Shown here: positions 8,007 to 63,652 of the stretch, piece by piece | How positions within the stretch are numbered: position 1 is the first letter of the stretch | Layout: every line of letters begins with the position of its first letter | From: Salinispira sp. | Lineage (GTDB): Bacteria > Spirochaetota > Spirochaetia > DSM-27196 > Salinispiraceae | Reading direction: 5' to 3' | Length of the DNA: 64,000 nucleotides | NCBI GenBank assembly: GCA_965602015.1 | Contig: OZ271918.1 | Span: 3,008,001-3,072,000, forward strand | Notes under the pieces: generated by a model | Told to the model about the DNA's origin: nothing | The model's input: the letters and a program-made list of their open reading frames with translations, nothing else | Database searches by the model: none | Program-made: the position numbers and the translations under genes

Positions 8007-9707
8007 ATGTTCTCAAGTCCCGGAAGCCCCCTGATCATACAGGGCGATCAGACCATATTGTTAGACCTCCACGATCCCCTGGCCGATGAGGCCCGGAAGG
8101 CCATCGCTCCCTTCGCCGAGCTGGAAAAATCGCCGGAACACATGCACAGTTACCGGCTCAATCCCCTCTCGCTGTGGAATGCCGCGGCGGCGGGCTATGA
8201 CAGCTCCCGCATTATGGAAATCCTGGACGGTTACAGCCGTTATCCGGTTCCCCAATCAGTGGCGAGAAATATGACCGAGCTCATGGAGAGATTCGGAAAA
8301 ATCCGGCTGCTGCCCGCCGAGGATTCCGCCGGAAATGCCAACGGTCTCTACTTCCTGGAAGTACGGGATCAAAGGCTTTTTGCTATACTCGATAATCAGC
8401 GCTCAATAAAAAAGCTGGTAATTCCTGCGGAACATATGTCCAAGGCCCGGAGGGGATTTCTCATTCATCCGCTGCAACGGGGAAGCGTCAAACAGGAGCT
8501 CATTTCCCTGGGTTATCCCGTCGAAGACCTCATCCCCCTGAGAAGCGGAGAAAAAATAGAGATACCCCGGAGAGAGCAGACCCTGTCCGGCAAGGATTTC
8601 GAAATTCGGGATTATCAGCGCCAGGCCGCCGACTCCTTCCTGGGGAATCTTGAGGGCGGCACGGGCTACGGCACCGTGGTACTGCCGTGCGGCGGGGGAA
8701 AAACCATTGTCGGAATCGACGTAATGAGCAGGCTGAACACCCACACACTGATTCTCGCACCAAACGTTTCGGCGGTTCATCAATGGCGTCGGGAACTTCT
8801 GGATAAAACCAGTTTGACTGAGGACGATATCGGCGAGTACAGCGGGCAGCGAAAGGAAATCCGTCCGGTGACCATCGCCACCTACCAGATCCTGGTGTAC
8901 CGTCCCGAAGTCGACGGCGATTTTCCCCACTTCAACCTGGTAACCCGGGAAGCCTGGGGCCTTATCATCTACGACGAAGTCCATCTGCTGCCCGCCCCCA
9001 TATTCCGGGTCACGGCCGAAATCCAGGCGGTGCGGCGTCTGGGACTGACAGCGACCCTTGTGCGGGAAGACGGGAAGGAGGGAGAGGTGTTTTCCCTGGT
9101 CGGTCCAAAGCGCTTTGACGTTCCCTGGAAGGACCTGGAAAACCGGGGCTGGATTTCCGAGGCAATCTGCAAGGAAATCCGCACCGAACTCCCGGAGGAG
9201 CTCCAGGTCCCCTACGCCACCGCGGAAAAGCGGAAAAAGTACCGGCTGGCAAGTGAGAACCCCCGCAAGTATGATATCGTCGAATATCTCATTCACCACC
9301 ATCCCCAGGATCAAATCCTGGTAATCGGGCAGTACCTCGATCAGCTGCACCACATTCAGAAGCTCATCGGGGCGCCATTGATTACCGGTAAAACTCCAAA
9401 CAGCCTCAGGGACGAGCTCTACCAGCAGTTCAGAGACGGGGAGCAGCGGATTCTCATAGTCTCAAAAGTCGCCAACTTCGCAATTGATCTTCCCGACGCC
9501 TCGGTGGCAATTCAGGTCTCGGGAAGCTTCGGTTCGCGCCAGGAGGAAGCACAGAGGCTGGGAAGAATCCTCAGGCCGAAACAACATTCGGCGTATTTTT
9601 ACACCCTGATATCCCGCTATACGGTGGAGGAGGAATTCGGCATCAATCGTCAAAAATTCCTCGCAGAACAGGGATATGAGTATCTTCTTGAATTGTGGGG
9701 CGAGTAA
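8007..9707 (+). CDS. Bacterial XPB/Rad25-like DNA helicase
   Basis: PFAELEKSPEHMHSYRLNPLSLWNA N-domain, LPCGGGKT, DEVH, GLTATLVRED, GSRQEEAQRLGRILRPK. Confidence 0.95.
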   Translation: MFSSPGSPLIIQGDQTILLDLHDPLADEARKAIAPFAELEKSPEHMHSYRLNPLSLWNAAAAGYDSSRIMEILDGYSRYPVPQSVARNMTELMERFGKIRLLPAEDSAGNANGLYFLEVRDQRLFAILDNQRSIKKLVIPAEHMSKARRGFLIHPLQRGSVKQELISLGYPVEDLIPLRSGEKIEIPRREQTLSGKDFEIRDYQRQAADSFLGNLEGGTGYGTVVLPCGGGKTIVGIDVMSRLNTHTLILAPNVSAVHQWRRELLDKTSLTEDDIGEYSGQRKEIRPVTIATYQILVYRPEVDGDFPHFNLVTREAWGLIIYDEVHLLPAPIFRVTAEIQAVRRLGLTATLVREDGKEGEVFSLVGPKRFDVPWKDLENRGWISEAICKEIRTELPEELQVPYATAEKRKKYRLASENPRKYDIVEYLIHHHPQDQILVIGQYLDQLHHIQKLIGAPLITGKTPNSLRDELYQQFRDGEQRILIVSKVANFAIDLPDASVAIQVSGSFGSRQEEAQRLGRILRPKQHSAYFYTLISRYTVEEEFGINRQKFLAEQGYEYLLELWGE

Positions 9708-9713
9708 GTTCGA

Positions 9714-11807
9714 ATGAAAGTACATGACCAGACCTGGCGATCCTTCCTCCTCACCCTTGATGACGACGTGTTTTTCGACGTCATCAGAAATTATCTCGGT
9801 CCAGTCAGCACGCCCTACAACAAGCACAAACTCCTCGAGCGATTGGTTCACTACCTGCAGCAGGAGAAAATCCGTAAAAAAATTCTGGGCAATTTGTCTC
9901 CGGAAGATGTGGAACTGCTGTCTTCGGTAGATCTCTTGAAGACCGACGACCTTCATCAGATTTTTATGTTCTTTGAGGGTAGCAGCTCGGCCGGGGAAAT
10001 ATATTCCCGACTTCTCAATCTTACCGACCGGCTGCTGATTTACCGATCGCCGGAAAGCGGAGTCCTGCTGGTGAACCCCCATCTTTCACAGGGACTGACT
10101 GCCGCCGGAATGGGCGGCTCCACACTGTTTCCTTCAACCCCCGCGCCGCCCCTTCGGATGGCCATTCCCTGGGTCAACGACCTGCTTATGCTGGGAAGTT
10201 TGTCCTTGCTGGTCGATGATGATAGCCTTTTAAAAGCCGACGGCACGATAAAAAAGCAGGCAGTAAAGAGATTCGAAGACATCTTTCCCCAGCTGAAGGA
10301 CGGTACCGAGTCTCCCGTCGAAATGATTGTCGATACCCTGAGAATTCTGGGGCTCATGGAACTGAATGATTCCGCCGTAAGCCTGCAACCGGAGGTCTGG
10401 GCCGACTGGGCCGATCTACCCATTGCGGACCGTCACTTTTTATACTGGGCCGCTGCCATCCGGAGCGTGCTGTCAGCCAGAGGAAGCCTGAATCAGAGCG
10501 GCGAGCGTTCCCGCTTTATTGAATTCCAGGAGATCAGCTCCGATGCGGCAATCCTCCGGCAGTTCCTTTCGAGCCTCGAATCCGGACGGGCATACCATCG
10601 GGAAACTCTGGTTCGCATGCTGCAGATTCAGTCGAACGGCAGAGGCATATTCCGGCGCACCGGAGCGGTTATCCGCCTCTGCGGCGAACTCGAACTGATT
10701 TCAGGCGGAGACAACTCCTACCAGCCGAATCCCGCTATCGCCGGGCTTCTGGATGCCGGCCTTTCCGAGCATCGGCCGGCGGGACCGGCGATAATTCTTC
10801 ACAGCGACTACCGGATTACCGTTCACCCCCACGGCGATTTTCGCCGCATGCTCATTCTCGCGTTTGCCGCGGAGATCAGGGAATTTGATCTGCTGTCAGT
10901 ATACGAGATCGGCAGAAGCAGCGTATTTCGGGCACTCGGCCTGGGAATTCCCGGAGCCGAGCTTCTCGACGCTATGGATCGACTCAGCGACCATCATAGC
11001 CCCCAAAACATCATGTTCAGCATAAAGAGCTGGATAGAAGAGTTCGAATCCGTCAGCGTCAGATCGGGCTATATGCTTCGCTGTACGGAGAAATCCCGGG
11101 CGGTAATTCACCTGGCGGCGCAGCACTGCCCGGACGCTGTGGTAATGTCCGATGATTCGGTGCTCTTTCCCCACCACGAATTATCGTGGGCCGACGAACT
11201 GGAAAAAAACGGCCTGCACATTCGTGCCCTGCTGCGTCTGGACAGCCGGAGGCACGAGGGCGGCGGCGGGCATTTTTCCACGCTGCCGCCTCTGGTTCCC
11301 CGTCACAGCAATGCACCGGCCTATGGTTCAGCCGTTGTTACCTCGTCGAAGCCGCTCTCCGAACCCGAAGTCCCGACAGGCGAAGCGATAAAACAATCGG
11401 AAAAAATAGACCGGAAATCCTTGCGAGCATTCATCGAAGACCTCGGCCTGTCGGAAGATATCGAGAAGGAACTGCTTTTGAGGGTGAACAACGGCCTCAT
11501 CCTCGAAGAACACCAGATCAATGCGGGAATCGTACGGCCCGATATCACCGAAGCCCGGGGCCTGAACTACACGGCGAAACTCCGCCTCATCGAGATGGCT
11601 CTGGACAAGCAGGATATCCTGGAATTCTTCCCGTCGGGACAGGAGCGGCCGTTGCTCTTAAAACCCGTGAAAATACACCGGAAGGCAGGGCGGAGCAGCG
11701 ATCTTCTCGAGGCAAAAAGCATCGCAGGTAATGAAGAGTTAACCATACCCATCGCCAAGGGCAGGCTTATCCGCCGCCTGAAAGGAAGTCTTTTTCACCG
11801 GGTGTGA
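9714..11807 (+). CDS. XPB partner protein with a helicase-associated (XPB N-terminal-like) domain and possible C-terminal WYL-like domain
   Basis: FAAEIREFDLLSVYEIGRSSVFRALGLG...PQNIMFSIKSW resembles the XPB N-domain; starts 6 nt after XPB. Confidence 0.75.
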   Translation: MKVHDQTWRSFLLTLDDDVFFDVIRNYLGPVSTPYNKHKLLERLVHYLQQEKIRKKILGNLSPEDVELLSSVDLLKTDDLHQIFMFFEGSSSAGEIYSRLLNLTDRLLIYRSPESGVLLVNPHLSQGLTAAGMGGSTLFPSTPAPPLRMAIPWVNDLLMLGSLSLLVDDDSLLKADGTIKKQAVKRFEDIFPQLKDGTESPVEMIVDTLRILGLMELNDSAVSLQPEVWADWADLPIADRHFLYWAAAIRSVLSARGSLNQSGERSRFIEFQEISSDAAILRQFLSSLESGRAYHRETLVRMLQIQSNGRGIFRRTGAVIRLCGELELISGGDNSYQPNPAIAGLLDAGLSEHRPAGPAIILHSDYRITVHPHGDFRRMLILAFAAEIREFDLLSVYEIGRSSVFRALGLGIPGAELLDAMDRLSDHHSPQNIMFSIKSWIEEFESVSVRSGYMLRCTEKSRAVIHLAAQHCPDAVVMSDDSVLFPHHELSWADELEKNGLHIRALLRLDSRRHEGGGGHFSTLPPLVPRHSNAPAYGSAVVTSSKPLSEPEVPTGEAIKQSEKIDRKSLRAFIEDLGLSEDIEKELLLRVNNGLILEEHQINAGIVRPDITEARGLNYTAKLRLIEMALDKQDILEFFPSGQERPLLLKPVKIHRKAGRSSDLLEAKSIAGNEELTIPIAKGRLIRRLKGSLFHRV

Positions 11808-52986: not shown

Positions 52987-53934
52987 ATGCAAGGAATACC
53001 AGAATACCCCGAATTCTCAAAAATTGAGAGGGATTTCAAGGCAGAATTGTACCCGCTGCTCAACAAGCTTCCCGGAGGAATCTCCGAATTCACCTTTACC
53101 GGCCTCTATCTGTTTCGCAACACGTACAAATACGAGCTGAGCTGGCTGCCGGGGAAAAAGCTGCTGATAAAAGGCGAAAAAGAGGGAAAGAGCTTTTACA
53201 GTCTTCCCATGGGCTTCCCGGAAGACAAGCAACTTCGGGAAACCCTTCTTCATGAAGTCAACTATATAAAGAACCTCACGGAAAATCATGCGGACGACGC
53301 CCGCGTCTGGCTCGAGAGCATTGGCTACAACGTGTGCGAAGATCGGGACAACTTCGACTATCTCTACCTTCGTGAAGACCTGGCAACTCTTCGAGGCAAG
53401 AAATACCATAAAAAGCGCAATCAGGTTAACGCATTTATCAACAACTACTCCTATGAAGAACGGCCGCTATGCAGCGACAATATTGCAGACGCTTTTTCCG
53501 TTTTGGATGAATGGCGTCGTTTGAGAGAAGACGACGGGGACTATGAAGCGAGTAAAGAAGCCCTTGAGCAGAAGGATTTTCTTTCTCTGGACGGCTACAT
53601 TGTCTACGTCGACGGCAAACCGGCTGCCTACACCATGGGCGAAGGAATTGCCAACGGAAGTACCTATGTAATTCATGTTGAGAAGGCCATTGGTCACTAC
53701 CGGGGCATTTATCAATTTATCAATCAGGCTTATGCCTCGGTTCTTCACAAAAAGTATCAGTATATTAACCGCGAACAAGACCTGGGCGACGCCGGCCTAC
53801 GCCAGGCAAAAATGACCTATCGCCCTGCGGGCTTTATTAAAAAATACCGGGTGTGCACAATAGGTAGTGTGGAAGTGCCCTTTCACACAGTAAACGCCGG
53901 AGAAGTGCGCGAATATGCGGGAAACCCTCGTTGA
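52987..53934 (+). CDS. DUF2156 / aminoacyl-transferase-like GNAT protein
   Basis: SEFTF, DRDNFDYLY..DLATLRGKKYHKKRN, HVEKA, YINREQDLGDAGLRQAKMTYRP. The track ORF 52327..53934 is over-extended across pepT. Confidence 0.88.
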   Translation: MQGIPEYPEFSKIERDFKAELYPLLNKLPGGISEFTFTGLYLFRNTYKYELSWLPGKKLLIKGEKEGKSFYSLPMGFPEDKQLRETLLHEVNYIKNLTENHADDARVWLESIGYNVCEDRDNFDYLYLREDLATLRGKKYHKKRNQVNAFINNYSYEERPLCSDNIADAFSVLDEWRRLREDDGDYEASKEALEQKDFLSLDGYIVYVDGKPAAYTMGEGIANGSTYVIHVEKAIGHYRGIYQFINQAYASVLHKKYQYINREQDLGDAGLRQAKMTYRPAGFIKKYRVCTIGSVEVPFHTVNAGEVREYAGNPR

Positions 53935-56900
53935 TGAAATACTAGCGATCCACCCCGAACACTCCAGGGAAAAGCTCCAACTCATTCTGGCGGCATTTTC
54001 TCATGCAAAGACCGAAAGACTCCCCCGAAGAGATCTGGCAGAAATTATCCATTACGCCGCCTCCATTACCCCGGCTAATCCTGTGCGATGCCTGCTGAGG
54101 AGAGACAGCGGGCATCAAGACGGTCCCACATCGATATATGTAATCGGACACGATCATGCGATGCTCTTCAGCATTTTAACCGGCGCTTTGGCTTCCGCAG
54201 GCTTTGATATACGCCGGGGCAGCCTTATCACCTCTGAGCGGATCGGCGGAAAGCGTTTAATCATCGATCATTTCTCCGGTAATCTTCCCCGAAAGACCGA
54301 TTCCCCATCGTGGTTCCAAGGCTTCACAAAGACCATGGAAGACATGTATTTCATCCTCGAAAAGGGCGGAAGTCCCGAACAGAAACAGGAACTCATCCAG
54401 CAGCGAATCATCGAAATGGTGAGCACCTCCCTTGAGCAGCGAAGTACGCCAAAAGACAGCCTCTTAAATCCAATAAACCTTCGCATTGAGCAAAAACCCG
54501 ACTCTACCCTCATCGAAATAAAATCCAGCGACACCCCGCTTTTTCTCTTCAGCCTGAGCAGCGTTCTCAGTCTTCACAGGCTTCGAATCGAACAGGTCAA
54601 TATCGAGACTAAAAACGGGAGATTAATCGACAGCATCGAATTCACCGACAATCGGGGCAACCCGATTACCAGCGAGAAAAAGCTCAACCGCATCAAGCTC
54701 TCAATTCTCATCTCCAAGCAGTTCACCTACTTTCTCGACCAGGCTCCGGATCCTACCAAAGCCCTGACGCGCTTTGACGATCTTATTCAGGACGTGCGGC
54801 AGTTAAAAGCCGGGGAGGACATTCGGCAAATGCTGGCGTCCCCGGAATTCCACGGCGAGCTGGCCCGGCTTCTCGGCACCAGTGATTTTATTTGGGAAGA
54901 TTTTATCCGGATCCAGCGGGACAGTATTCTGCCGATGCTCAAAAACGTTAACCGCAGCAGGCTTTTGAGCTTTGAACCTGAGGAGATGGCCGATGCCCTT
55001 ACACGGCACCTGGAAAATTTCGACGGTCCGGATCTCGAACGGGAGCTCAATGCGTTTAAGAACAGACAGAGTTTTCTCATTGATATGGATCATATTCTCG
55101 TACGGGATCTGGATTTCTTCTTCCTGTCGCGAAGACTCAGCGCCCTCGCCGATGCGGTTATTAATGCCGCCTGCGAAATAGCCTATCGGAACTGCGTCGA
55201 TCTGTACGGGGTTCCCCGGACCGCCGGCGGTCTGGAACCACATTGGGCGGTTTTTGGCCTCGGCAAACTTGGCGGTCAGGCAATGGGATACGCCTCCGAC
55301 CTGGAGCTGCTGTTTATCTATTCCGACAGCGGTAAAAGCGACGGCAGCAAAGCCCTCGCGAATCGTGATTTCTTCGAGAAAATGTTCAAGCGGGCTGCGG
55401 GATTGATTTCCGCAAAAAAAGAAGGAATTTTCCAGGTGGACCTGCGGTTGCGGCCCCATGGAGAAGACGGCCCGGTGGCGGTGAAGCTCGACAAGTTCCA
55501 GGCTTATTACGGGGAAGACGGCAAGGCACACAGTGCAGAGCGCCTCGCCCTGGTCCGCCTGCGGCGCATCGGTGGTGAGCAGCGACTTGGAGAAGAAATT
55601 CTATCAATCAGAGACCACATCGTGTATGAAAGCGATTCCATCGATCTGCCGGAGCTGCGGGACCTGCGGCGTATCCAGCTGGAAGAAAAGCTGGAGGAAG
55701 GAAGAATAAACGCGAAGTTCAGCCCCGGAGGCTTGGTCGACCTTGAGTATAATGTGCAAATTCTTCAGGTGATACACGGCCGGGGCCACCCCCACATCAG
55801 AGGCCCGGGTATTCACACAGCGCTGCATGAACTTCAGCGCCTGGGTACCATCGACCGGGACGAAAGCCTGGCAATGATCCAGGCATACCGATTTCATCGA
55901 AACCTCATAAACGGACTGCGTATGCTTCGGGGAAATGCCGACGACCTCTTTCTTCCTGATGCGGCCCAGAGGGAATTCCGCCACCTTGCCCGTCGCATAG
56001 GCTACCGGCGAAACGGGGAACTCAGCGAATCTGATCAGTTAAAAATCGATTTCGAAACCCACAGCGCAAAGGTGCGGCAATTCGTCGAACGGCACCTCGG
56101 CAGAGATGCCATTCCCGGCGACAGGCGCATGACCGTGGTTGATCTGGTTCTCGGTGCGACCATAGACGACGAATCCCCCGGCGAGTTCACCGCCCTTTTT
56201 GCCAGTTCGGGTTTTTCCGAACCACGGAAGGCCCAAGTCAACCTGAAGCGCATTGCTGAGGGACTCGGTTCCCAATCAGATTTTATCAGGCTCATAATAC
56301 TGGCCTGGGAACGCATATGCCGGAGCGCCGATCCGGATATGGCGCTGAACAATTGGGAACAGTTCGTCGCCAATCTCTCGGACCCCCAAGAGCACATCCT
56401 GCAATTGCTGAGTCAGCCACGGCGCATGGACATTCTGTATCAATTGCTCGCCAGTTCCCAATACCTTGCGGACACCCTAATCCAGAATCCCGGGTTTTTC
56501 CTGTGGGCAACGGACCCCATGGTTGTGAACCGTCCCCGGACGCAGATCGATATGGAAGAAACGCTGGCTGCCGAAGCCGCCTCCGCGGTCGATCGACTGG
56601 ACTGGCAAAACCGGATTCGGCTCATGCGCAAGCGGGAAATCCTGCGGATAGGAGTACGGGACATCGCCCTCGGTGTCAAAATCGAAGAAATAATGGGGGA
56701 AATATCCTTTCTCGCCCGGGGCTGCTGCGAAGTATCTCTCAAAGAAGCATGGCGTCGCGAGCAGCAAAAATCCCCCGAGCAGGATATAAAAAGCGCTTCC
56801 CAACGGGTTTCAGTCCTCGCCTTCGGCAAGCTCGGAGGATGGGAACTCAACTACAGCTCGGATATCGACCTTCTGTGCGTATACGACGCCGATCCACATG

Positions 56901-57688
56901 CAAATCGGGACAATGAAAACCAGCTGTACACCCGGGTTTTTCGGGAAATGGTAAAAGATCTCAACGACTTCACCAGCGAAGGCCAGGCCTACCGGGTAGA
57001 TATGCGGCTCAGGCCGTACGGAGCCTCGGGCCCCCTTGTGTCTTCCCTGAGCTCGGCATTTTCCTACTATCAGAAGCAAGCCGAACCCTGGGAATTCCAG
57101 GCCCTGGTAAAGCTCAAACCCGTCGCGGGAAACCTGGTTCTGGGTGAACGGTTCCTGGAGAACCTCAAACCGGTGTTCGACAACGTTTGGGAAGTACACG
57201 ATCCCAGAGAAAACATCAGGAAGATGCGGGAAAAAAGCATTGCCCATCATGTGGGGGGCAGTGGATCGGATCTTAACGATCGGGACGCCGACATCATGGC
57301 GGGATTCGATGTGAAGAATGATCGCGGAGGCATCAGGGACATTGAGTTTTTCATCCAGGGGAAGCAGATGCTGCACAGCGCCGACTACCCGGCGGTACTG
57401 ACGGGGAACAGTCTCCGGGGCCTTCAGCTTTTGCTGCGGGCCGACCTTATTTCCTCCGAGCTCGCCGCCAGATTAAGCGAGTACTACCGTTTTTTCAGAA
57501 AGGTTGAGCATTATCTGCAACTCGCCCAGAATCGCCAGGAGCACCGTCTGCCGGACAAGCAAGAGGATCGGGCGAAACTCGCCCGCTGCATCCAGCCTCA
57601 AAGCACGACAGAGGGTTTTTTCCGATACTTCAGCTCCGCCCTCAAGGAAGTCCACGCGGTGTACCGGGGCTTTATCAGTCAGTCCTGA
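53915..57688 (+). CDS. glnE: Glutamine synthetase adenylyltransferase/deadenylase with N-terminal ACT domains
   Basis: Two nucleotidyltransferase domains (GKLGGQAMGYASDLE...VDLRLRPHG; GKLGGWELNYSSDID...VDMRLRPYG) preceded by ACT-like segments. Confidence 0.9.
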   Translation: MRETLVDEILAIHPEHSREKLQLILAAFSHAKTERLPRRDLAEIIHYAASITPANPVRCLLRRDSGHQDGPTSIYVIGHDHAMLFSILTGALASAGFDIRRGSLITSERIGGKRLIIDHFSGNLPRKTDSPSWFQGFTKTMEDMYFILEKGGSPEQKQELIQQRIIEMVSTSLEQRSTPKDSLLNPINLRIEQKPDSTLIEIKSSDTPLFLFSLSSVLSLHRLRIEQVNIETKNGRLIDSIEFTDNRGNPITSEKKLNRIKLSILISKQFTYFLDQAPDPTKALTRFDDLIQDVRQLKAGEDIRQMLASPEFHGELARLLGTSDFIWEDFIRIQRDSILPMLKNVNRSRLLSFEPEEMADALTRHLENFDGPDLERELNAFKNRQSFLIDMDHILVRDLDFFFLSRRLSALADAVINAACEIAYRNCVDLYGVPRTAGGLEPHWAVFGLGKLGGQAMGYASDLELLFIYSDSGKSDGSKALANRDFFEKMFKRAAGLISAKKEGIFQVDLRLRPHGEDGPVAVKLDKFQAYYGEDGKAHSAERLALVRLRRIGGEQRLGEEILSIRDHIVYESDSIDLPELRDLRRIQLEEKLEEGRINAKFSPGGLVDLEYNVQILQVIHGRGHPHIRGPGIHTALHELQRLGTIDRDESLAMIQAYRFHRNLINGLRMLRGNADDLFLPDAAQREFRHLARRIGYRRNGELSESDQLKIDFETHSAKVRQFVERHLGRDAIPGDRRMTVVDLVLGATIDDESPGEFTALFASSGFSEPRKAQVNLKRIAEGLGSQSDFIRLIILAWERICRSADPDMALNNWEQFVANLSDPQEHILQLLSQPRRMDILYQLLASSQYLADTLIQNPGFFLWATDPMVVNRPRTQIDMEETLAAEAASAVDRLDWQNRIRLMRKREILRIGVRDIALGVKIEEIMGEISFLARGCCEVSLKEAWRREQQKSPEQDIKSASQRVSVLAFGKLGGWELNYSSDIDLLCVYDADPHANRDNENQLYTRVFREMVKDLNDFTSEGQAYRVDMRLRPYGASGPLVSSLSSAFSYYQKQAEPWEFQALVKLKPVAGNLVLGERFLENLKPVFDNVWEVHDPRENIRKMREKSIAHHVGGSGSDLNDRDADIMAGFDVKNDRGGIRDIEFFIQGKQMLHSADYPAVLTGNSLRGLQLLLRADLISSELAARLSEYYRFFRKVEHYLQLAQNRQEHRLPDKQEDRAKLARCIQPQSTTEGFFRYFSSALKEVHAVYRGFISQS

Positions 57689-57819
57689 TAAAAAGAGAAT
57701 CTATCAGAATGTCTTACCTTTTATGGGAATATCCTTTTAAATAGTCGAAAAGTTGAAAGATTGGTAACAGATTCAGGGTTTTGCCATGTTCTATACGTAG
57801 ATTCACTCGGGAGAATGGT

Positions 57820-58293
57820 TTGCAGATCGATATCGAAAAATACTATTCAACATACGCGCCGATGGTGTACCGCCGATGTCTGGCAATCGTCAAAAACGAC
57901 GATGCGGCATCGGACATCATGCAGGACGTGTTTGTTAATCTTCTACGATTCCAGGAGCGCCTGGAACACAAGGGACCGTCCAGCTTGTTGTACACAATGG
58001 CGACCAACTTGAGTCTCAATTACCTTCGTTCACAAAAGTTGAGGCAGTACACTCCGGTCGATGAATATGATCCGGGTTGGAGCGATCCCAGCGGTGAGAC
58101 CATTCTCGCCAGGCACTTTCTCGACCGTCTTTTCTCGATCGAGGATGAGAAGACTCAGACCATTGCCTGGCTGCATTATGTCGACCGCTTCACCCTGGAA
58201 GAAACCGCAGAACAGGTCGGCATGTCGGTATCAGGCATCCGAAAACGTCTGAGAAAGCTCCAGAGCCGGGGCAAATCCCTGAAGGAGGCCTAG
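57820..58293 (+). CDS. ECF RNA polymerase sigma factor
   Basis: Region 2 DAASDIMQDVFVNL...LYTMATNLSLNYLR, region 4 TLEETAEQVGMSVSGIRKRL. TTG 57820 follows GGGAGA. Confidence 0.93.
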   Translation: MQIDIEKYYSTYAPMVYRRCLAIVKNDDAASDIMQDVFVNLLRFQERLEHKGPSSLLYTMATNLSLNYLRSQKLRQYTPVDEYDPGWSDPSGETILARHFLDRLFSIEDEKTQTIAWLHYVDRFTLEETAEQVGMSVSGIRKRLRKLQSRGKSLKEA

Positions 58294-58299
58294 GAAACG

Positions 58300-59190
58300 A
58301 TGAAAGCCCAGACTGACCACATTAACGATTTGTATTATGAACAGGCAGCCGTGGATGAGTTGCCCGGCAAGGTACTCGACCGCTTAAAGGAGCAGCCTTC
58401 CTTCAGCGCTGAAGAATTTGAACGGCGGGTTGGCGAACTCCGTGAGGAAAACCGTCAGTTCCACCGGCGCAAAGACAGCCGAAAAATACTTGAGGCAATC
58501 AGGTCCCGGGCCTTTGCCGACGCTCATGACGAAAATCGCGTTTCGGTATTCGCCGATGAGTTTAAGCGCCGCGATGATGCTTCCGACGCAGCTCCCCGGC
58601 AATCAAAATTTCGTATTGCCGGTATGCCCCGCTGGGGAGCCGCCCTGGCGGCCGCCCTACCGGTATTTTTGGCCATCGGCATCATAATGCGGATGGGCAT
58701 CCCCGCAGGCCCAGAAATTCCCGGCGATATCGAGCCCGGCATCCGCACCAAGGGGCTAGAACCCCGGATATTCGTCTATCGCGATATGGGTGACGGCCAG
58801 GCTGAACTCCTGCAGGACAGCACCCAGGTACAGGAAAACGACAGGCTGCAGATTTCCTACCTGGCGGCCGGTATGAACTACGGCGCCATCCTCTCGATTG
58901 ACGGCTCATCGGTGATTACCCTTCATTATCCCGAAAATTCCAATATGCTCCCTCGATTACAACCCAGAGATGAGGTATATCTACCATATGGTTATCTGCT
59001 TGACGATGCGCCGGATTTCGAACGATTCTTTTTCGTAACCTCCAATGAAGCATTTGACGTCAGAGAGCTTATGGCCAGCCTCACCCCTCAATTACGGAGC
59101 AATGCATGGGCAGAACAGGGCACCCTGGAAATCCCGGGAGACTTTAAAGTCCATCGTATCAATCTGGTTAAACCCCGGGCACAACGTTAG
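58300..59190 (+). CDS. Putative membrane-spanning anti-sigma factor with extracytoplasmic Ig-like (DUF4384/ActD-like) domain
   Basis: Directly after the sigma gene; cytoplasmic N-terminus, one TM (WGAALAAALPVFLAIGII), RTKG, then ENDRLQISY...SIDGSSVITLHYP...LDDAPDFERFF. Confidence 0.75.
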   Translation: MKAQTDHINDLYYEQAAVDELPGKVLDRLKEQPSFSAEEFERRVGELREENRQFHRRKDSRKILEAIRSRAFADAHDENRVSVFADEFKRRDDASDAAPRQSKFRIAGMPRWGAALAAALPVFLAIGIIMRMGIPAGPEIPGDIEPGIRTKGLEPRIFVYRDMGDGQAELLQDSTQVQENDRLQISYLAAGMNYGAILSIDGSSVITLHYPENSNMLPRLQPRDEVYLPYGYLLDDAPDFERFFFVTSNEAFDVRELMASLTPQLRSNAWAEQGTLEIPGDFKVHRINLVKPRAQR

Positions 59191-59199
59191 GAGGCAGAA

Positions 59200-61812
59200 A
59201 TGAAAATAAATAAAATACTGCCCATACTTTTTATACTATTATCGGTTAGCATTGCAGCGGTCGCCCAAAGCGGCCCTAGCGAACCTCAGGGTGTGCGTCG
59301 ATTCGGTCTGTTTGTCGGTGTAAACGACGGTGGCAGCACTCGTCAGCAGCTGCGCTGGGCGGTAAGCGATGCCCGCAAACTCAGCGAAGTGATGTCGGAA
59401 GTGGGCGGAATACTGCCCGGCGATGCCCTCGTACTTGAAGATCCGGGCACTCGCAGCATTGCATCGGGATTCGACAGGGTTAACCGGCTCATCGAAATTG
59501 AAGAAGCCAATGCTCGCCGTGTCGAGTTTGTCTTTTACTATAGCGGACATTCCGATGAAACCGGTTTGCTTTTGGGCGATGATCACATGGCCTACAGCGA
59601 CCTGAGAGAGGCGATACAATCGGTAAATGCCGATGTCCGCGTAGCGATTCTCGACTCATGCGCCTCAGGGGCGTTTACCCGCTCCAAGGGCGGGGAACGA
59701 ACGCAGCCCTTCCTCATCGGCGACAGTTCGGATATGACCGGCCATGCTTTTCTCACCTCCAGCTCGGAGGATGAGCTGGCTCAGGAATCCGACAGGCTGG
59801 CGGCATCGTATTTTACGCACTTTATGATTTCCGGCCTTCGCGGCGCGGCGGACCATTCCGGAGACCGGAAGGTTACCCTAAACGAAGCTTACGAATACGC
59901 GTTCAACGAGACCCTCTCGGTTACCAGTAGCAGCGTCGCCGGCCCCCAGCATCCGTCATACAATATTGAACTCAGCGGTTCCGGGGACCTGGTCCTCACC
60001 GATCTGAGCAACCCGATTAGCTCACTGGTTCTCGACAGCGATCTGGCAGGACGGATGTTTATAAAGGACGGTCGGGGGAATATAATTGCCGAGGTCAATA
60101 AAGCTCCCGACAAGCTCATCGAAATCGCCCTCGATCCGGGCCTCTACTCTGTAGAGCTCAACGCCGCTAACGGCGGGTTTTACCAGTACCAGTTCAACCT
60201 CTCATACCGGAGTCAGCGTTTACTGGGCATGCGCGATATGAATCCCATTCAGCCAATCGCCAATCGAACCCGGGGCGGCAGCCCTATCGAACCCTTCCTT
60301 CAAAATCAGGACAGCGCTTCCGCAGAAAACCGGGAAGTGGAAGACGGCACCCTGGACGGACCGGAAGAGCCCGCAGCAGATATTGGGGGGCAGGAACTGC
60401 CTGACAGCTCCGATAGCGGCGAGGCGAATGACTTTTTTATCAATGAAGACGATTTTTTTACCGACGAAGAGGATTTCTTCTCGGATGAATCGGACTTTTT
60501 CGACGATCCCTTCTTTGCCGATGAAGGTGAACAGCCGGCCCGGGATCTGGTACCCGGCAGCGAAAATTCGAGCATCACCGATGCGCGGCCTGAGCAGGAT
60601 AAAATACCGTCGAACAACAGCGGATTAAAGCGGGAGGAGCCCCTAAGTGCCGATCCCCAGCAGTCGCCGGCATTTCGCTATGAGCCGTTTTACGCCACAG
60701 TAGTTCCCGGCATAAGCATTCCCTGGGGCGACGGAAGCGGTATGCACAATAACGTCGCCGTTTCCCCGCTCATTCTTGAAACCGGGATGATTACCGGCTC
60801 AGCGATGAGCGGCATTGTCAGCACTCATGAGGGCAGGGTCATCGGGGCTTCCTTCGCGGGAATCGGAATAGAATTCCGCGACAATCTGGTAGGCGCGGGT
60901 TTCGGCGGGATTTACACCATCGCTTCGGGTCGGGTATTCGGCGCACAGCTGGCCGGGGTGTTCAACATCGCCTCTGAACCGTCCGTAACATTCCAGGCAG
61001 CCGGAGTATTTAATATCGCCGAGGAGCCGATCAGCGGAGCGCAAATTTCCGGCGTGTTCAATGAGGCGGATCACAGAATCGACGGTGTGCAGCTCAGCGG
61101 TGTATTTAACGAAACCGGAACAGTGAACGGCGCTCAGATTGCTGGGGTATTCAACAACGCAGTACAGGTCAACGGGGCTCAGCTCGGTACGGTAAACATC
61201 ACCAAGAACGGCAACGGAGTACAGCTTGGTGTCGTTAACCTGGCCCGCGGCCGACTGAACGGCGTGCAGCTCGGTGTCATAAACGTCGCAGACGACCTGT
61301 ACGGCATTCCCATTGGTCTTATCAGCTGGGTCCGTCAGGGGATTCACGACATCAGCTACTGGACAGAAGACGAAACTACAAGCTTCGTCGGCACTGCCAA
61401 CGGCAGCAGGAATTTTTATGCCATACTCTATGCGGGAATAGACAACCAGGGAGAATTTGATCTGCTCCCTGAACTCACCGCTGGATTCGGATGGGGACTT
61501 CGGATCAGTCTCAAGCCGATATACTTCGATCTCGAGGCGACGGTTCGTCGGGGGACCCGGGGCGAAAGCGCCAACGACAGGATGGTCAGCCTGTTTGACC
61601 CGGAGAACCCTTACATCTATCCGACCGCGCGCTTCATGACCGGCCTTGAGTTCCTTGGGATTGGGTTCTTCCTCGGCTTGAGCATGGATCTCGAACTTGA
61701 GCAGTCCCTCACCGGCGGCCTCGTCAGATACAACGGCAAGGCGAGCGGTGCTCGGCCAATCGAAGGATTCGGAACGATACACCATCGGTTTATGTGGGGA
61801 GTCAGGCTATAA
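59200..61812 (+). CDS. Exported caspase-like (C14) protease with acidic linker, GxQ repeats and possible C-terminal beta-barrel
   Basis: Signal peptide; RFGLFVGVN, LRWAVSDA, YYSGHS (His117), ILDSCASG (Cys154), AQES...SYFTH...GLRGAAD. Confidence 0.9.
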   Translation: MKINKILPILFILLSVSIAAVAQSGPSEPQGVRRFGLFVGVNDGGSTRQQLRWAVSDARKLSEVMSEVGGILPGDALVLEDPGTRSIASGFDRVNRLIEIEEANARRVEFVFYYSGHSDETGLLLGDDHMAYSDLREAIQSVNADVRVAILDSCASGAFTRSKGGERTQPFLIGDSSDMTGHAFLTSSSEDELAQESDRLAASYFTHFMISGLRGAADHSGDRKVTLNEAYEYAFNETLSVTSSSVAGPQHPSYNIELSGSGDLVLTDLSNPISSLVLDSDLAGRMFIKDGRGNIIAEVNKAPDKLIEIALDPGLYSVELNAANGGFYQYQFNLSYRSQRLLGMRDMNPIQPIANRTRGGSPIEPFLQNQDSASAENREVEDGTLDGPEEPAADIGGQELPDSSDSGEANDFFINEDDFFTDEEDFFSDESDFFDDPFFADEGEQPARDLVPGSENSSITDARPEQDKIPSNNSGLKREEPLSADPQQSPAFRYEPFYATVVPGISIPWGDGSGMHNNVAVSPLILETGMITGSAMSGIVSTHEGRVIGASFAGIGIEFRDNLVGAGFGGIYTIASGRVFGAQLAGVFNIASEPSVTFQAAGVFNIAEEPISGAQISGVFNEADHRIDGVQLSGVFNETGTVNGAQIAGVFNNAVQVNGAQLGTVNITKNGNGVQLGVVNLARGRLNGVQLGVINVADDLYGIPIGLISWVRQGIHDISYWTEDETTSFVGTANGSRNFYAILYAGIDNQGEFDLLPELTAGFGWGLRISLKPIYFDLEATVRRGTRGESANDRMVSLFDPENPYIYPTARFMTGLEFLGIGFFLGLSMDLELEQSLTGGLVRYNGKASGARPIEGFGTIHHRFMWGVRL
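60430..60525 (+). repeat. Coding heptad repeat DFFxxEx, about 5 units
   Basis: DFFINED DFFTDEE DFFSDES DFFDDP FFADE; about 21-nt period. Confidence 0.8.
60790..61320 (+). repeat. Coding G-x-Q-x-x-G-V-F-N repeats, 12-15 aa (beta-solenoid-like)
   Basis: GAQLAGVFN, FQAAGVFN, GAQISGVFN, GVQLSGVFN, GAQIAGVFN, GAQLGTVN, GVQLGVVN, GVQLGVIN. Confidence 0.8.
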
Positions 61813-62248: not shown

Positions 62249-63652
62249 TTACACGTCGTAATAGAGCTCAAACTCGACGGGAGTCGGCTGGAGCTTCTGA
62301 ATTTCCACCTCTTCCTGGAGCCGGTAGTCGGTATAGGCTTCAATAAAGCCCTCATCGAATACGTCTCCGGCGGTGAGCCAGTCTTTGTCAGCCAGCATTT
62401 CCTTGATGGCCTCTTCCTGGGTTGCACAGGTGGAGGGAATGGATGCGGCTTCTTCCGCAGGAAGATCGTAGATATTCTTATCCAGAGCGGAACCAGGATC
62501 GATCTTGTTCTTGATTCCGTCTATCATGGCCATCGTCATGGCTGCAAAACCGAGATATGGGCTTCCTGAGCTGTCGCCGCAACGGAATTCGAAGCGTCGG
62601 GCATTATCGCCGGTGACATAGGGGATACGCACTGCCGCGGAGCGGTTCGTCGCCGAGTACGCCAGCTTAACCGGAGCTTCGTAACCGGGAACAAGCCGCT
62701 TATAGCTGTTACCCGTAGGATTGGTAAATGCCTGGATGGATCGGCCGTGCTTTAACAGTCCGCCGATGGCATACAATGCAGTCTCGGAGAGGTTTGCATA
62801 TTCATCCCCGGCGAAGGTGTTTTTTCCGTCCTTCCAGATAGAAGTGTGGACATGCATACCCGATCCATTATCTCCAAACATGGGCTTGGGCATAAACGTC
62901 GCGCTTTTTCCGTACTGATAGGCGGTATTCTTAACTGCATACTTGTATTTGTGAACCAGGTCGCCGGCTGTGATGATTTCACCGAACTTCACGCCGATCT
63001 CTCCCTGGGCTGTGGCCACTTCATGGTGGTGCAGGAACACGGTTAAGCCCATGGATTCCATGTTCGCCACAATGTCGCCGCGCAGATCCATCAGGGTGTC
63101 CTGGGGAGTGGCGGGGAAGTATCCCATTTTATGACGAATCTTGTGTCCGAGGTTAACCCCCTCGTTTCCGGCAGTCCAGGGACCTTCACCGGTTTCAACT
63201 TCGAAAAAGCTCGAGTTTGCGGAATTGCCGATGCGAACAGAATCAAATATGAAGAATTCCGGCTCGGGCCCGAAATATATGGTATCGCCAATTCCAAGAC
63301 TCTTCATGTATTCCTGGGCTCGGTAGGCGATGTTCCTGGGTGCCCGCTCATAGCGCTCGCCGGTCCGGGGCTCGTAGATATCGCCAAAAAGAACCAGAGT
63401 TTTTCGTTCTCGGAAGGGATCCACGAATGCTGAACTCAGGTCCGGCTTGAATACCATGTCCGATTTATCAATGCTCTTCCAGGCCCGAATGCTGGAACCG
63501 TCGAAGGGAATACCGTCGGTAAGCTGCTCTTCATCCATATTCTTTGCGACAAAGGTGGTGTGCTGAAGCATACCGAACATATCGCCGAACTGGAGATCCA
63601 GATACTCGATTCCTTCCTTCTTAATCATTTCAAGAATGGCTTTGGCTGACAT
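62249..63652 (-). CDS. glnA: Glutamine synthetase type I (beta, adenylylatable)
   Basis: FDGSSI, GPEPEFF, HHEVA, TFMPKP..DNGSGMHVH, SYKRLVPGYEAP, NRSA; adenylylation loop DKNIYDLP. Confidence 0.98.
   Translation of the reverse strand: MSAKAILEMIKKEGIEYLDLQFGDMFGMLQHTTFVAKNMDEEQLTDGIPFDGSSIRAWKSIDKSDMVFKPDLSSAFVDPFRERKTLVLFGDIYEPRTGERYERAPRNIAYRAQEYMKSLGIGDTIYFGPEPEFFIFDSVRIGNSANSSFFEVETGEGPWTAGNEGVNLGHKIRHKMGYFPATPQDTLMDLRGDIVANMESMGLTVFLHHHEVATAQGEIGVKFGEIITAGDLVHKYKYAVKNTAYQYGKSATFMPKPMFGDNGSGMHVHTSIWKDGKNTFAGDEYANLSETALYAIGGLLKHGRSIQAFTNPTGNSYKRLVPGYEAPVKLAYSATNRSAAVRIPYVTGDNARRFEFRCGDSSGSPYLGFAAMTMAMIDGIKNKIDPGSALDKNIYDLPAEEAASIPSTCATQEEAIKEMLADKDWLTAGDVFDEGFIEAYTDYRLQEEVEIQKLQPTPVEFELYYDV

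Follow-up and report, generated by a model that had tools for sequence, protein, structure and literature searches.

A lysine/arginine-glycine dipeptide shared by an anti-sigma factor candidate and a caspase-like protease encoded in one Salinispira operon: a predicted cleavage code

In a 64,000-nucleotide stretch of the genome of Salinispira sp. (contig OZ271918.1, positions 3,008,001 to 3,072,000; hereafter the window, whose first letter is position 1), three adjoining genes of the + strand encode a sigma factor of the extracytoplasmic function (ECF) type, a candidate single-pass membrane anti-sigma factor and an exported caspase-like protease of family C14 (Table 1); the closest named homologues are labeled Salinispira pacifica. 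Three short basic motifs are found in the latter two proteins, namely in the stalk of the anti-sigma candidate (site 1), in the loop after the catalytic cysteine of the protease (site 2) and at the start of the linker that leads from the protease to its predicted anchor (site 3). The core common to all three, [KR]-G, is nearly invariant, and the same dipeptide is present across spirochaetes, myxobacteria, Aminicenantes and Acidobacteriota. The best model, which we consider on balance probable, is that the protease cuts after lysine or arginine and before glycine, frees itself from an outer-membrane anchor and sheds the periplasmic domain of the anti-sigma candidate ahead of the intramembrane protease RseP.

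The first-pass annotation of the window had read the shared element as R-[ST]-[KR]-G and attributed it to a single protease specificity. The three motifs are indeed present in the sequence where it had placed them, and its residue numbering (K151, K163 and R358) is correct; RTKG follows a Pro/Gly-rich stalk, and RSKG begins seven residues after the catalytic cysteine (R161 is Cys154+7 and K163 is Cys154+9). The pattern matches the two proteins three times only, at sites 1, 2 and 3, compared with 70 matches in the 1,055,061 residues of the 2,453 open reading frames (ORFs) of the genome; 0.08 matches would be expected in the 1,166 residues of the two proteins, and the probability of three or more is approximately 7e-5, for a pattern chosen post hoc. 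Conservation was assessed in 189 loci (80 from a genome scan, and 29 close and 80 divergent myxobacterial loci, the divergent ones hand-picked among the listed matches for low identity and genome spread). These loci contain 175 protease ORFs (30-55% identity), of which 162 were paired with an upstream membrane protein, the other 13 being dropped (five with no upstream ORF in the locus and eight that failed a hydrophobicity and size filter). The motifs are retained down to 30% protease identity, and the linker columns that flank them vary freely, but what is retained is [KR]-G rather than the four-residue pattern. The latter was rejected as the code, the Ser/Thr being unconserved and the first arginine preferred only at sites 1 and 2; arginine as the P1 residue of these two sites is also disfavored, given that it varies (it is found at P3 in 136 of the 162 anti-sigma candidates) and Lys-Gly does not. 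With [KR]-G as the shared element, lysine or arginine is therefore indicated at P1 and glycine at P1′. The proposed single specificity holds at P1-P1′ but not beyond, because site 3, which lacks a conserved first arginine and has Arg or Lys depending on the clade, differs from sites 1 and 2; as a whole, the earlier interpretation is partly supported.

At site 1, K-G occurs within 40 residues after the transmembrane helix in 160 of the 162 anti-sigma candidates, the remaining two having R-G, whereas 500 shuffles gave a mean of 37 and a maximum of 53, and the next two 40-residue windows contain K-G in 14 and 12 of the sequences. One of the two R-G proteins (L072) has RIKG just past the 40-residue window; the other (L187, GIRARG) is the sole anti-sigma candidate with a true R-G, and the linker K-G of its partner protease is displaced by two residues. 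Among 81 anti-sigma candidates, each of R149, K151 and G152 is conserved in 80, with different exceptions, and the whole R-x-K-G in 78, with Thr at position 150 in just 12; in the set of 162, P2 is mostly Leu, Ile or Val, and Ser or Thr in 31. Further afield, K-G is present in 137 of 138 additional cluster representatives (124 with R-x-K-G and 13 without the arginine; the last has RIKS), and R-x-K-G in all nine anti-sigma candidates fetched from near relatives. Across the family, site 1 lies about 7-35 residues beyond the inner-membrane helix, and in the structure model the predicted local distance difference test score (pLDDT) of the stalk is below 50 at residues 141-144 and 146-149.

In the protease, R161, K163 and G164 of site 2 are invariant among 120 sequences (the middle residue is Leu in 84), and each of K163 and G164 is conserved in 174 of the 175. 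The site 2 consensus, T-R-x-K-G, is that of site 1 from P4 to P1′; the surroundings (S156, G157, G165 and F171) are conserved throughout, whereas the flanks of sites 1 and 3 are variable. At site 3, [KR]-G is found in 167 of the 175 proteases, two sequences being cut off by the ends of their loci, and in the set of 120 R358 is kept in 119 (Lys in one), G359 in all and R356 in just 70. The basic residue of site 3 changes by clade, from Arg in 90 of 94 near proteases to Lys in 74 of 81 divergent ones, an exchange of the kind that a basic P1 would undergo. Model confidence is low at or beside all three sites, with a pLDDT of 57 for the site 2 block and below 50 from protease residue 356 onward.

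Natural controls are provided by relatives in which part of the system is missing. Protease-less paralogues with the Ig-like domain and the barrel are encoded in Aminicenantes loci, and [KR]-G is found in the site 3 linker of three out of 42 of them versus six of six protease-bearing sisters (one fragment left out). Conversely, the Aminicenantes proteases lack the beta-helix and reach the barrel within about 20 residues, and site 3 is still present, so that this site appears to track the protease and not the anchor. Some of the paralogues (L030:10616-11191, L041:4923-5873, L044:8170-9261 and 9442-10332), each with a signal peptide, an Ig-like domain and a small barrel, are encoded downstream of the trio in Aminicenantes-type loci; the protease-less proteins are possible decoys or co-receptors. 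In L120 (239-5147, − strand), tandem protease genes occur in a locus with no sigma or anti-sigma match, and the second copy, with a degenerate active-site region, has lost sites 2 and 3 together, a single case that is perhaps a pseudogene. Eleven Archangium loci (L011-L014, L017, L020, L023, L029, L033, L036 and L043) encode a sigma factor and an anti-sigma candidate with RTKG or RPKG and no adjacent protease. At face value these pairs count against cleavage by the operon protease, but as a no-protease control they were rejected as uninformative: they neither support nor refute the model because family proteases lie elsewhere in all nine orphan-pair genomes checked, and four more show the full trio among the 80 loci of the genome scan. 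Retention of the motif in the orphan pairs would mean that a paralogue acts on them in trans.

The catalytic domain has the caspase fold and the His-Cys dyad of clan CD, family C14. The structure model matches Arabidopsis metacaspase 4 (6w8r_A; Z score 20.1, root-mean-square deviation 2.9, 208 aligned residues), caspase-7 (Z 19.5) and MALT1 (Z 19.2), and these values are tied within one Z unit, so that no subfamily is singled out; no CHAT or TPR match was found in the protease by profile scan. D57, H117, D152 and C154 are present in 175 of 175 proteases, and S115 and E196 in 174. In TbMCA2, the pocket for a basic P1 is formed by C92, D95, S156 and D211, and in MALT1 by D365, D462 and E500 (PMC4357240). 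D57 aligns with the Asp of the GCIND motif of fungal and plant metacaspases, S115 is located two residues before the catalytic His, and D152 two residues before the catalytic Cys; in our own mapping, D57, S115 and D152 correspond to D95, S156 and D211 of TbMCA2 by spacing to the dyad, and E196 lies, by position only, in the loop where MALT1 has E500. Residue conservation and alignment thus point to the acidic S1 pocket of subfamily C14B, and the preference for a basic P1, which the first-pass annotation had assumed, is well supported by homology.

Under the preferred model, K151, K163 and R358 would be the P1 residues, each with Gly at P1′, and a periplasmic protease tethered to the outer membrane would be out of reach of site 1, which is close to the inner membrane. 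A cue at the barrel or the beta-helix that clusters the protease is our guess for the trigger; cleavage at site 2 would then activate the protease, cleavage at site 3 would release it from the anchor, and from a cut at K151 a stub of some 20 residues would remain for RseP, which in turn would free the sigma factor and switch on an autoregulated envelope-stress regulon. The rseP gene is present in the genome (above cut-off), and RseP is known to degrade another anti-sigma factor, DdvA, once its periplasmic domain has been removed (PMC11506125). The long linker of the Salinispira protein might allow reach without release; we nevertheless argue that release is a general need because the linkers of many homologues are short. 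The weakest part of this chain is auto-activation at site 2 because MALT1 requires no cut in the corresponding loop. More tentatively, and with rather less confidence than in the cleavages as such, the system could be a widespread switch that spans the envelope: a caspase relative would be held at the outer membrane, away from its substrate, and would read a single Lys/Arg-Gly code three times, for activation, untethering and shedding of the anti-sigma factor.

Several observations weigh against this model. A single simple specificity does not account for the near-exclusive Lys of sites 1 and 2 alongside the frequent Arg of site 3. Conservation of [KR]-G does not by itself mark a site of cleavage because R214-G215, in a core helix of the protease, is also kept, in 153 of 175 sequences. 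MALT1 is active with its site-2-type loop intact (PMC4357240). In the model of the anti-sigma candidate, K151-G152 adjoins a folded domain (pLDDT 87 for residues 151-160, the beta-sandwich starting at residue 156), and there are exceptions to the dipeptide, namely RLTG and RVKD, RIKS in one anti-sigma cluster representative, and KRYS at site 3 (L118). The paralogue control amounts to two or three independent losses and not 42, because 39 of the sequences belong to one clade. Finally, both the barrel and the periplasmic location of the protease are predictions.

The co-variation between the partners should be weighed in the same manner. Arg at P3 of the anti-sigma candidate accompanies protease D198 in 133 of 136 pairs versus 14 of the 26 without this Arg, and an Arg in the protease linker in 130 of 136 versus 17 of 26. 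However, only two or three independent pairs, nearly all in the same direction, inform this association (sign test on the tree, p 0.25-0.5), and because of this it is a lead and not evidence. D198 (59791-59793) may contribute to an S3 subsite, its association on the tree being non-significant. The partners agree in their P2 residue in 32 of 162 pairs versus 19.5 after shuffling, a count that ignores kinship and is given no weight. A pair-specific code between a protease and its own anti-sigma factor is accordingly unsupported, neither the P3 nor the D198 association being significant on the tree.

The alternative that survives best concerns site 2, which could be an uncut regulatory loop, its lysine docking in the S1 pocket of a neighboring molecule or ordering the active site, with only sites 1 and 3 being cut. 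Such a loop would account for a position fixed at Cys+9 within a stretch conserved throughout, unlike the variable flanks of the other two sites; MALT1 offers a precedent, as noted above, and Cys+9 seems too close for cutting in cis. Against these considerations stand the identity of the consensus with P4 to P1′ of site 1, the low pLDDT of the block and the conserved activating cuts of type II metacaspases (PMC4357240, PMC3304489), which leave this alternative a small but real chance of being right. We also regard as unlikely that the motifs are pseudo-substrate or docking elements, through which the stalk inhibits the protease or the reverse, with the sigma factor freed by titration or by another protease. 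From sequence, a substrate and a competitive inhibitor are indistinguishable, the strict Lys of sites 1 and 2 could signify a tight, slowly cut binder, and the bacterial caspase inhibitor PCi is cut and yet inhibits (bioRxiv 2023.06.23.546230); nevertheless, all 175 proteases retain the catalytic dyad, site-1 shedding would agree with the invariant P1′ Gly and with a site 1 flanked by a membrane helix on one side and a bulky domain on the other, and release would agree with the location of site 3, where the enzyme is joined to its anchor.

Quite improbable is an outside or host trypsin-like protease that cuts the K-G and R-G sites, so that the system senses, as a tripwire, foreign proteases or a break in the outer membrane and the operon protease only amplifies the signal or has other proteins as its targets. 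Exposed basic sites would suit any trypsin-like enzyme, a cascade is known in which a second protease switches on a bacterial caspase (bioRxiv 2023.06.23.546230), and the genome itself holds other proteases, including a second, unrelated C14 protein; however, the one enzyme common to spirochaetes, myxobacteria, Aminicenantes and Acidobacteriota accounts better for a dipeptide maintained in all of these groups, and site 3 vanishes along with the protease domain. A purely structural role, as turns at the edges of domains that resemble one another by chance, is hardly credible: R214-G215 is structural yet conserved, and sites 1 and 3 adjoin beta-sandwich domains, but the dipeptide is common to three unrelated contexts, the same Ig-like domain dispenses with it once the protease is gone, and model confidence at the sites is low.

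Table 1. Features of the operon in the window (coordinates are those of the window).
Feature	Position	Strand	Basis or remark
ECF-type promoter-like element, GTAACA-N17-TGTT	57764..57790	+	Upstream of the sigma gene
ECF sigma factor	57820..58293	+	Sigma70_r2 E 5.8e-12; TIGR02937 above cut-off
Single-pass anti-sigma candidate, 296 aa	58300..59190	+	N-terminal helices followed by a transmembrane helix, a stalk and a DUF4384-like beta-sandwich
Predicted transmembrane helix of the anti-sigma candidate, ~residues 112-132	58633..58695	+	Hydrophobic run; model helix 120-132
Site 1, R149-T-K151-G152 (RTKG)	58744..58755	+	Stalk; predicted cut between K151 and G152
DUF4384-like beta-sandwich	58756..59187	+	Would be shed by a site 1 cut, if made; structure model, homologue profile matches
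Exported C14 caspase-like protease, 870 aa	59200..61812	+	PF00656 30.6 bits, cut-off 21.4
Caspase-fold catalytic domain, residues 29-271	59284..60012	+	Structure model
Catalytic dyad, H117 and C154	59548-50 and 59659-61	+	S1-pocket candidates D57, S115, D152, E196
Site 2, R161-S-K163-G164 (RSKG)	59680..59691	+	Loop after catalytic Cys; predicted cut between K163 and G164, or self-docking loop
Small all-beta (Ig-like) domain	60013..60240	+	Strands 274-342, high pLDDT; shared with protease-less paralogues
Site 3, R356-T-R358-G359 (RTRG)	60265..60276	+	R358-G359 (60271-76) is the conserved core; cut predicted here for release
Acidic disordered linker, 131 aa, 38 Asp/Glu	60277..60669	+	Model disorder 356-485; far shorter in many homologues
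Beta-helical repeat region, LA_2272-type repeats	60670..61332	+	NF047436 above cut-off; missing from some homologues
Predicted small outer-membrane beta-barrel anchor, eight long strands	61333..61812	+	Model strands 715-869

The gene that follows the sigma gene encodes a protein with the features of an anti-sigma factor, that is, a cytoplasmic helical domain, one transmembrane helix and an outer domain, and a sigma match was found in 76 of the 80 loci of the genome scan. DUF4384 (PF14326) is matched weakly by 25 of 70 aligned homologues (E<=0.05, best 2.3e-4) and not by the Salinispira protein itself, and zf-HC2 and RskA_N are each matched by one of the 70; no fold match to solved structures was detected at E<=0.001, and a profile search of PDB sequences gave nothing meaningful. 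The name "ActD-like" is taken from source labels and rests on these only, because no actD literature was found. Elsewhere in the genome, positions 2522151-2522846 (− strand) encode an anti-sigma-like membrane protein of weak similarity (E 2.7e-4) with a stalk devoid of K-G and no C14 gene among the neighboring long ORFs. Residues 1-23 of the protease look, by eye, like a signal peptide; the eight C-terminal strands of the model read as an outer-membrane barrel (103 of 120 homologues end in F, L or I), and the usual topology of small barrels would place the catalytic domain in the periplasm. The second C14 protein of the genome (2392486-2393418, L081) is distant and unrelated, probably a lipoprotein, and has no linker K-G. 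In L063 (5547-7558), a frameshift, perhaps an assembly error, splits the protease gene just past the catalytic Cys.

The sigma protein contains regions 2 and 4 only and is shorter than 200 residues, as is typical of ECF sigma factors; its start is probably the TTG at 57820, which follows both GGAG and the promoter-like element, rather than the position 57781 given by the ORF caller. A matching element, GT[AG]AC[AG]-N17-[TC]GTT, is located ahead of the sigma gene in 61 of the 74 loci examined, is an inverted repeat (GTAACA...TGTTAC) in several of them, and is likely to be autoregulatory for the operon; a scan for sigma-70 promoters and terminators gave matches at chance level. The genome holds 22 matches to elements of this type, and the six that score best lie before the operon itself and shortly before a DUF4097 protein, an HSP20 gene pair, a probable lipoprotein and two DUF2807 proteins (the other five near 141972 (−), 3655122 (−), 2783555 (+), 1008367 (+) and 3417597 (+); loci L224-L228). 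This prediction from a consensus suggests a regulon of envelope and protein stress, not death. The operon is flanked by glnE-like (glutamine synthetase adenylyltransferase; 53915-57688, +) and glnA-like (62249-63652, −) genes, named by eye from the sequence, and the long ORFs between 50000 and 64000 look, again by eye, like housekeeping genes, with no CRISPR genes beside the operon.

To our knowledge, the native substrates of bacterial caspase homologues are a long-standing gap. In the available part of the 2012 survey, 70 of 217 operons are without a function (PMC3501461). The present family is large (about 670 sequence stretches in a collection with one genome per species, and 2,263 anti-sigma clusters at E<=1e-30) and occurs in 78 of 121 sampled myxobacterial genomes, and the motif supplies a named candidate substrate, a named candidate bond and a promoter for a reporter. 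If the model is correct, a large family of bacterial caspase homologues would gain a native substrate with its cut site and a role in envelope-stress transcription rather than death, and a C14 enzyme would join the site-1 proteases, with control by distance across the periplasm.

The gene order was already noted in 2012: operons of sigma-70 and metacaspase genes were reported in Myxococcus xanthus (four) and in Anaeromyxobacter, Haliangium, Sorangium, Ralstonia and Fibrobacter (Asplund-Samuelsson et al., 2012; PMC3501461). With a sigma gene beside a caspase homologue, as here, and given the myxobacterial occurrence, these very likely represent the present family; the available part of that survey names no anti-sigma factor, motif, substrate or mechanism. 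No paper on the motif or the mechanism was found in the literature searched, which largely excludes subscription journals, and the word "caspase" is absent from the examined part of the supplement to the ECF re-classification (PMC7826278).

Among characterized systems, DdvS/DdvA of M. xanthus likewise combines an ECF sigma factor with a single-pass anti-sigma factor whose stalk is proposed to be cut by an enzyme of the caspase fold (PMC11506125). In DdvA, however, a TPR-CHAT protease resides within the anti-sigma factor and the available text maps no site for the proposed cut, whereas here the enzyme, of family C14, is encoded by a gene of its own and predicted to be anchored in the outer membrane, and the 296-residue anti-sigma candidate has a 144-residue beta-sandwich as its outer domain; the DdvS regulon comprises CRISPR and CBASS (PMC11506125), and the candidates here are envelope genes. 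In Craspase, a caspase-like enzyme also acts on an anti-sigma factor, as proposed here: Csx29 cuts Csx30 at one site and releases the ECF factor CASP-sigma, and some C-terminal domains of Csx30 are DUF4384, comparable with the DUF4384-like outer domain (PMC10028731, bioRxiv 2022.08.17.504292). Unlike the exported C14 protease, Craspase is cytoplasmic, RNA-triggered and of the TPR-CHAT type, with the cut between M427 and K428 (PMC10028731, bioRxiv 2022.08.17.504292), and its combination of TPR-CHAT with Cas7-11 in a CRISPR locus is not found in this operon. The SAVED-CHAT/PCaspase/PCc-sigma/PCi system of Haliangium similarly has a cleavage-activated C14 caspase beside a sigma gene, but PCaspase is cytoplasmic, activated by a second protease and of broad specificity, and it cuts the sigma factor itself, with no membrane anti-sigma factor described in the accessible text (bioRxiv 2023.06.23.546230).

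MALT1 and the metacaspases share with the Salinispira protease the caspase fold, the acidic S1 pocket and, as predicted, the basic P1, and in MALT1, too, the protease domain is followed by an Ig-like domain (PMC4357240, PMC3304489). The protease described here differs from them in being bacterial and exported, with Lys-dominated sites and 18% identity over the catalytic domain. Frequent cutting of Arg-Gly bonds by MALT1 would be one more similarity. A parallel in logic is the DegS/RseA/RseP pathway of Escherichia coli sigma-E (cited in PMC10028731), in which site-1 shedding precedes an intramembrane cut, the two steps proposed here. In Salinispira, the role of DegS would fall to a cysteine protease of clan CD suspended from the outer membrane, whose self-cut sites copy the site in its substrate.

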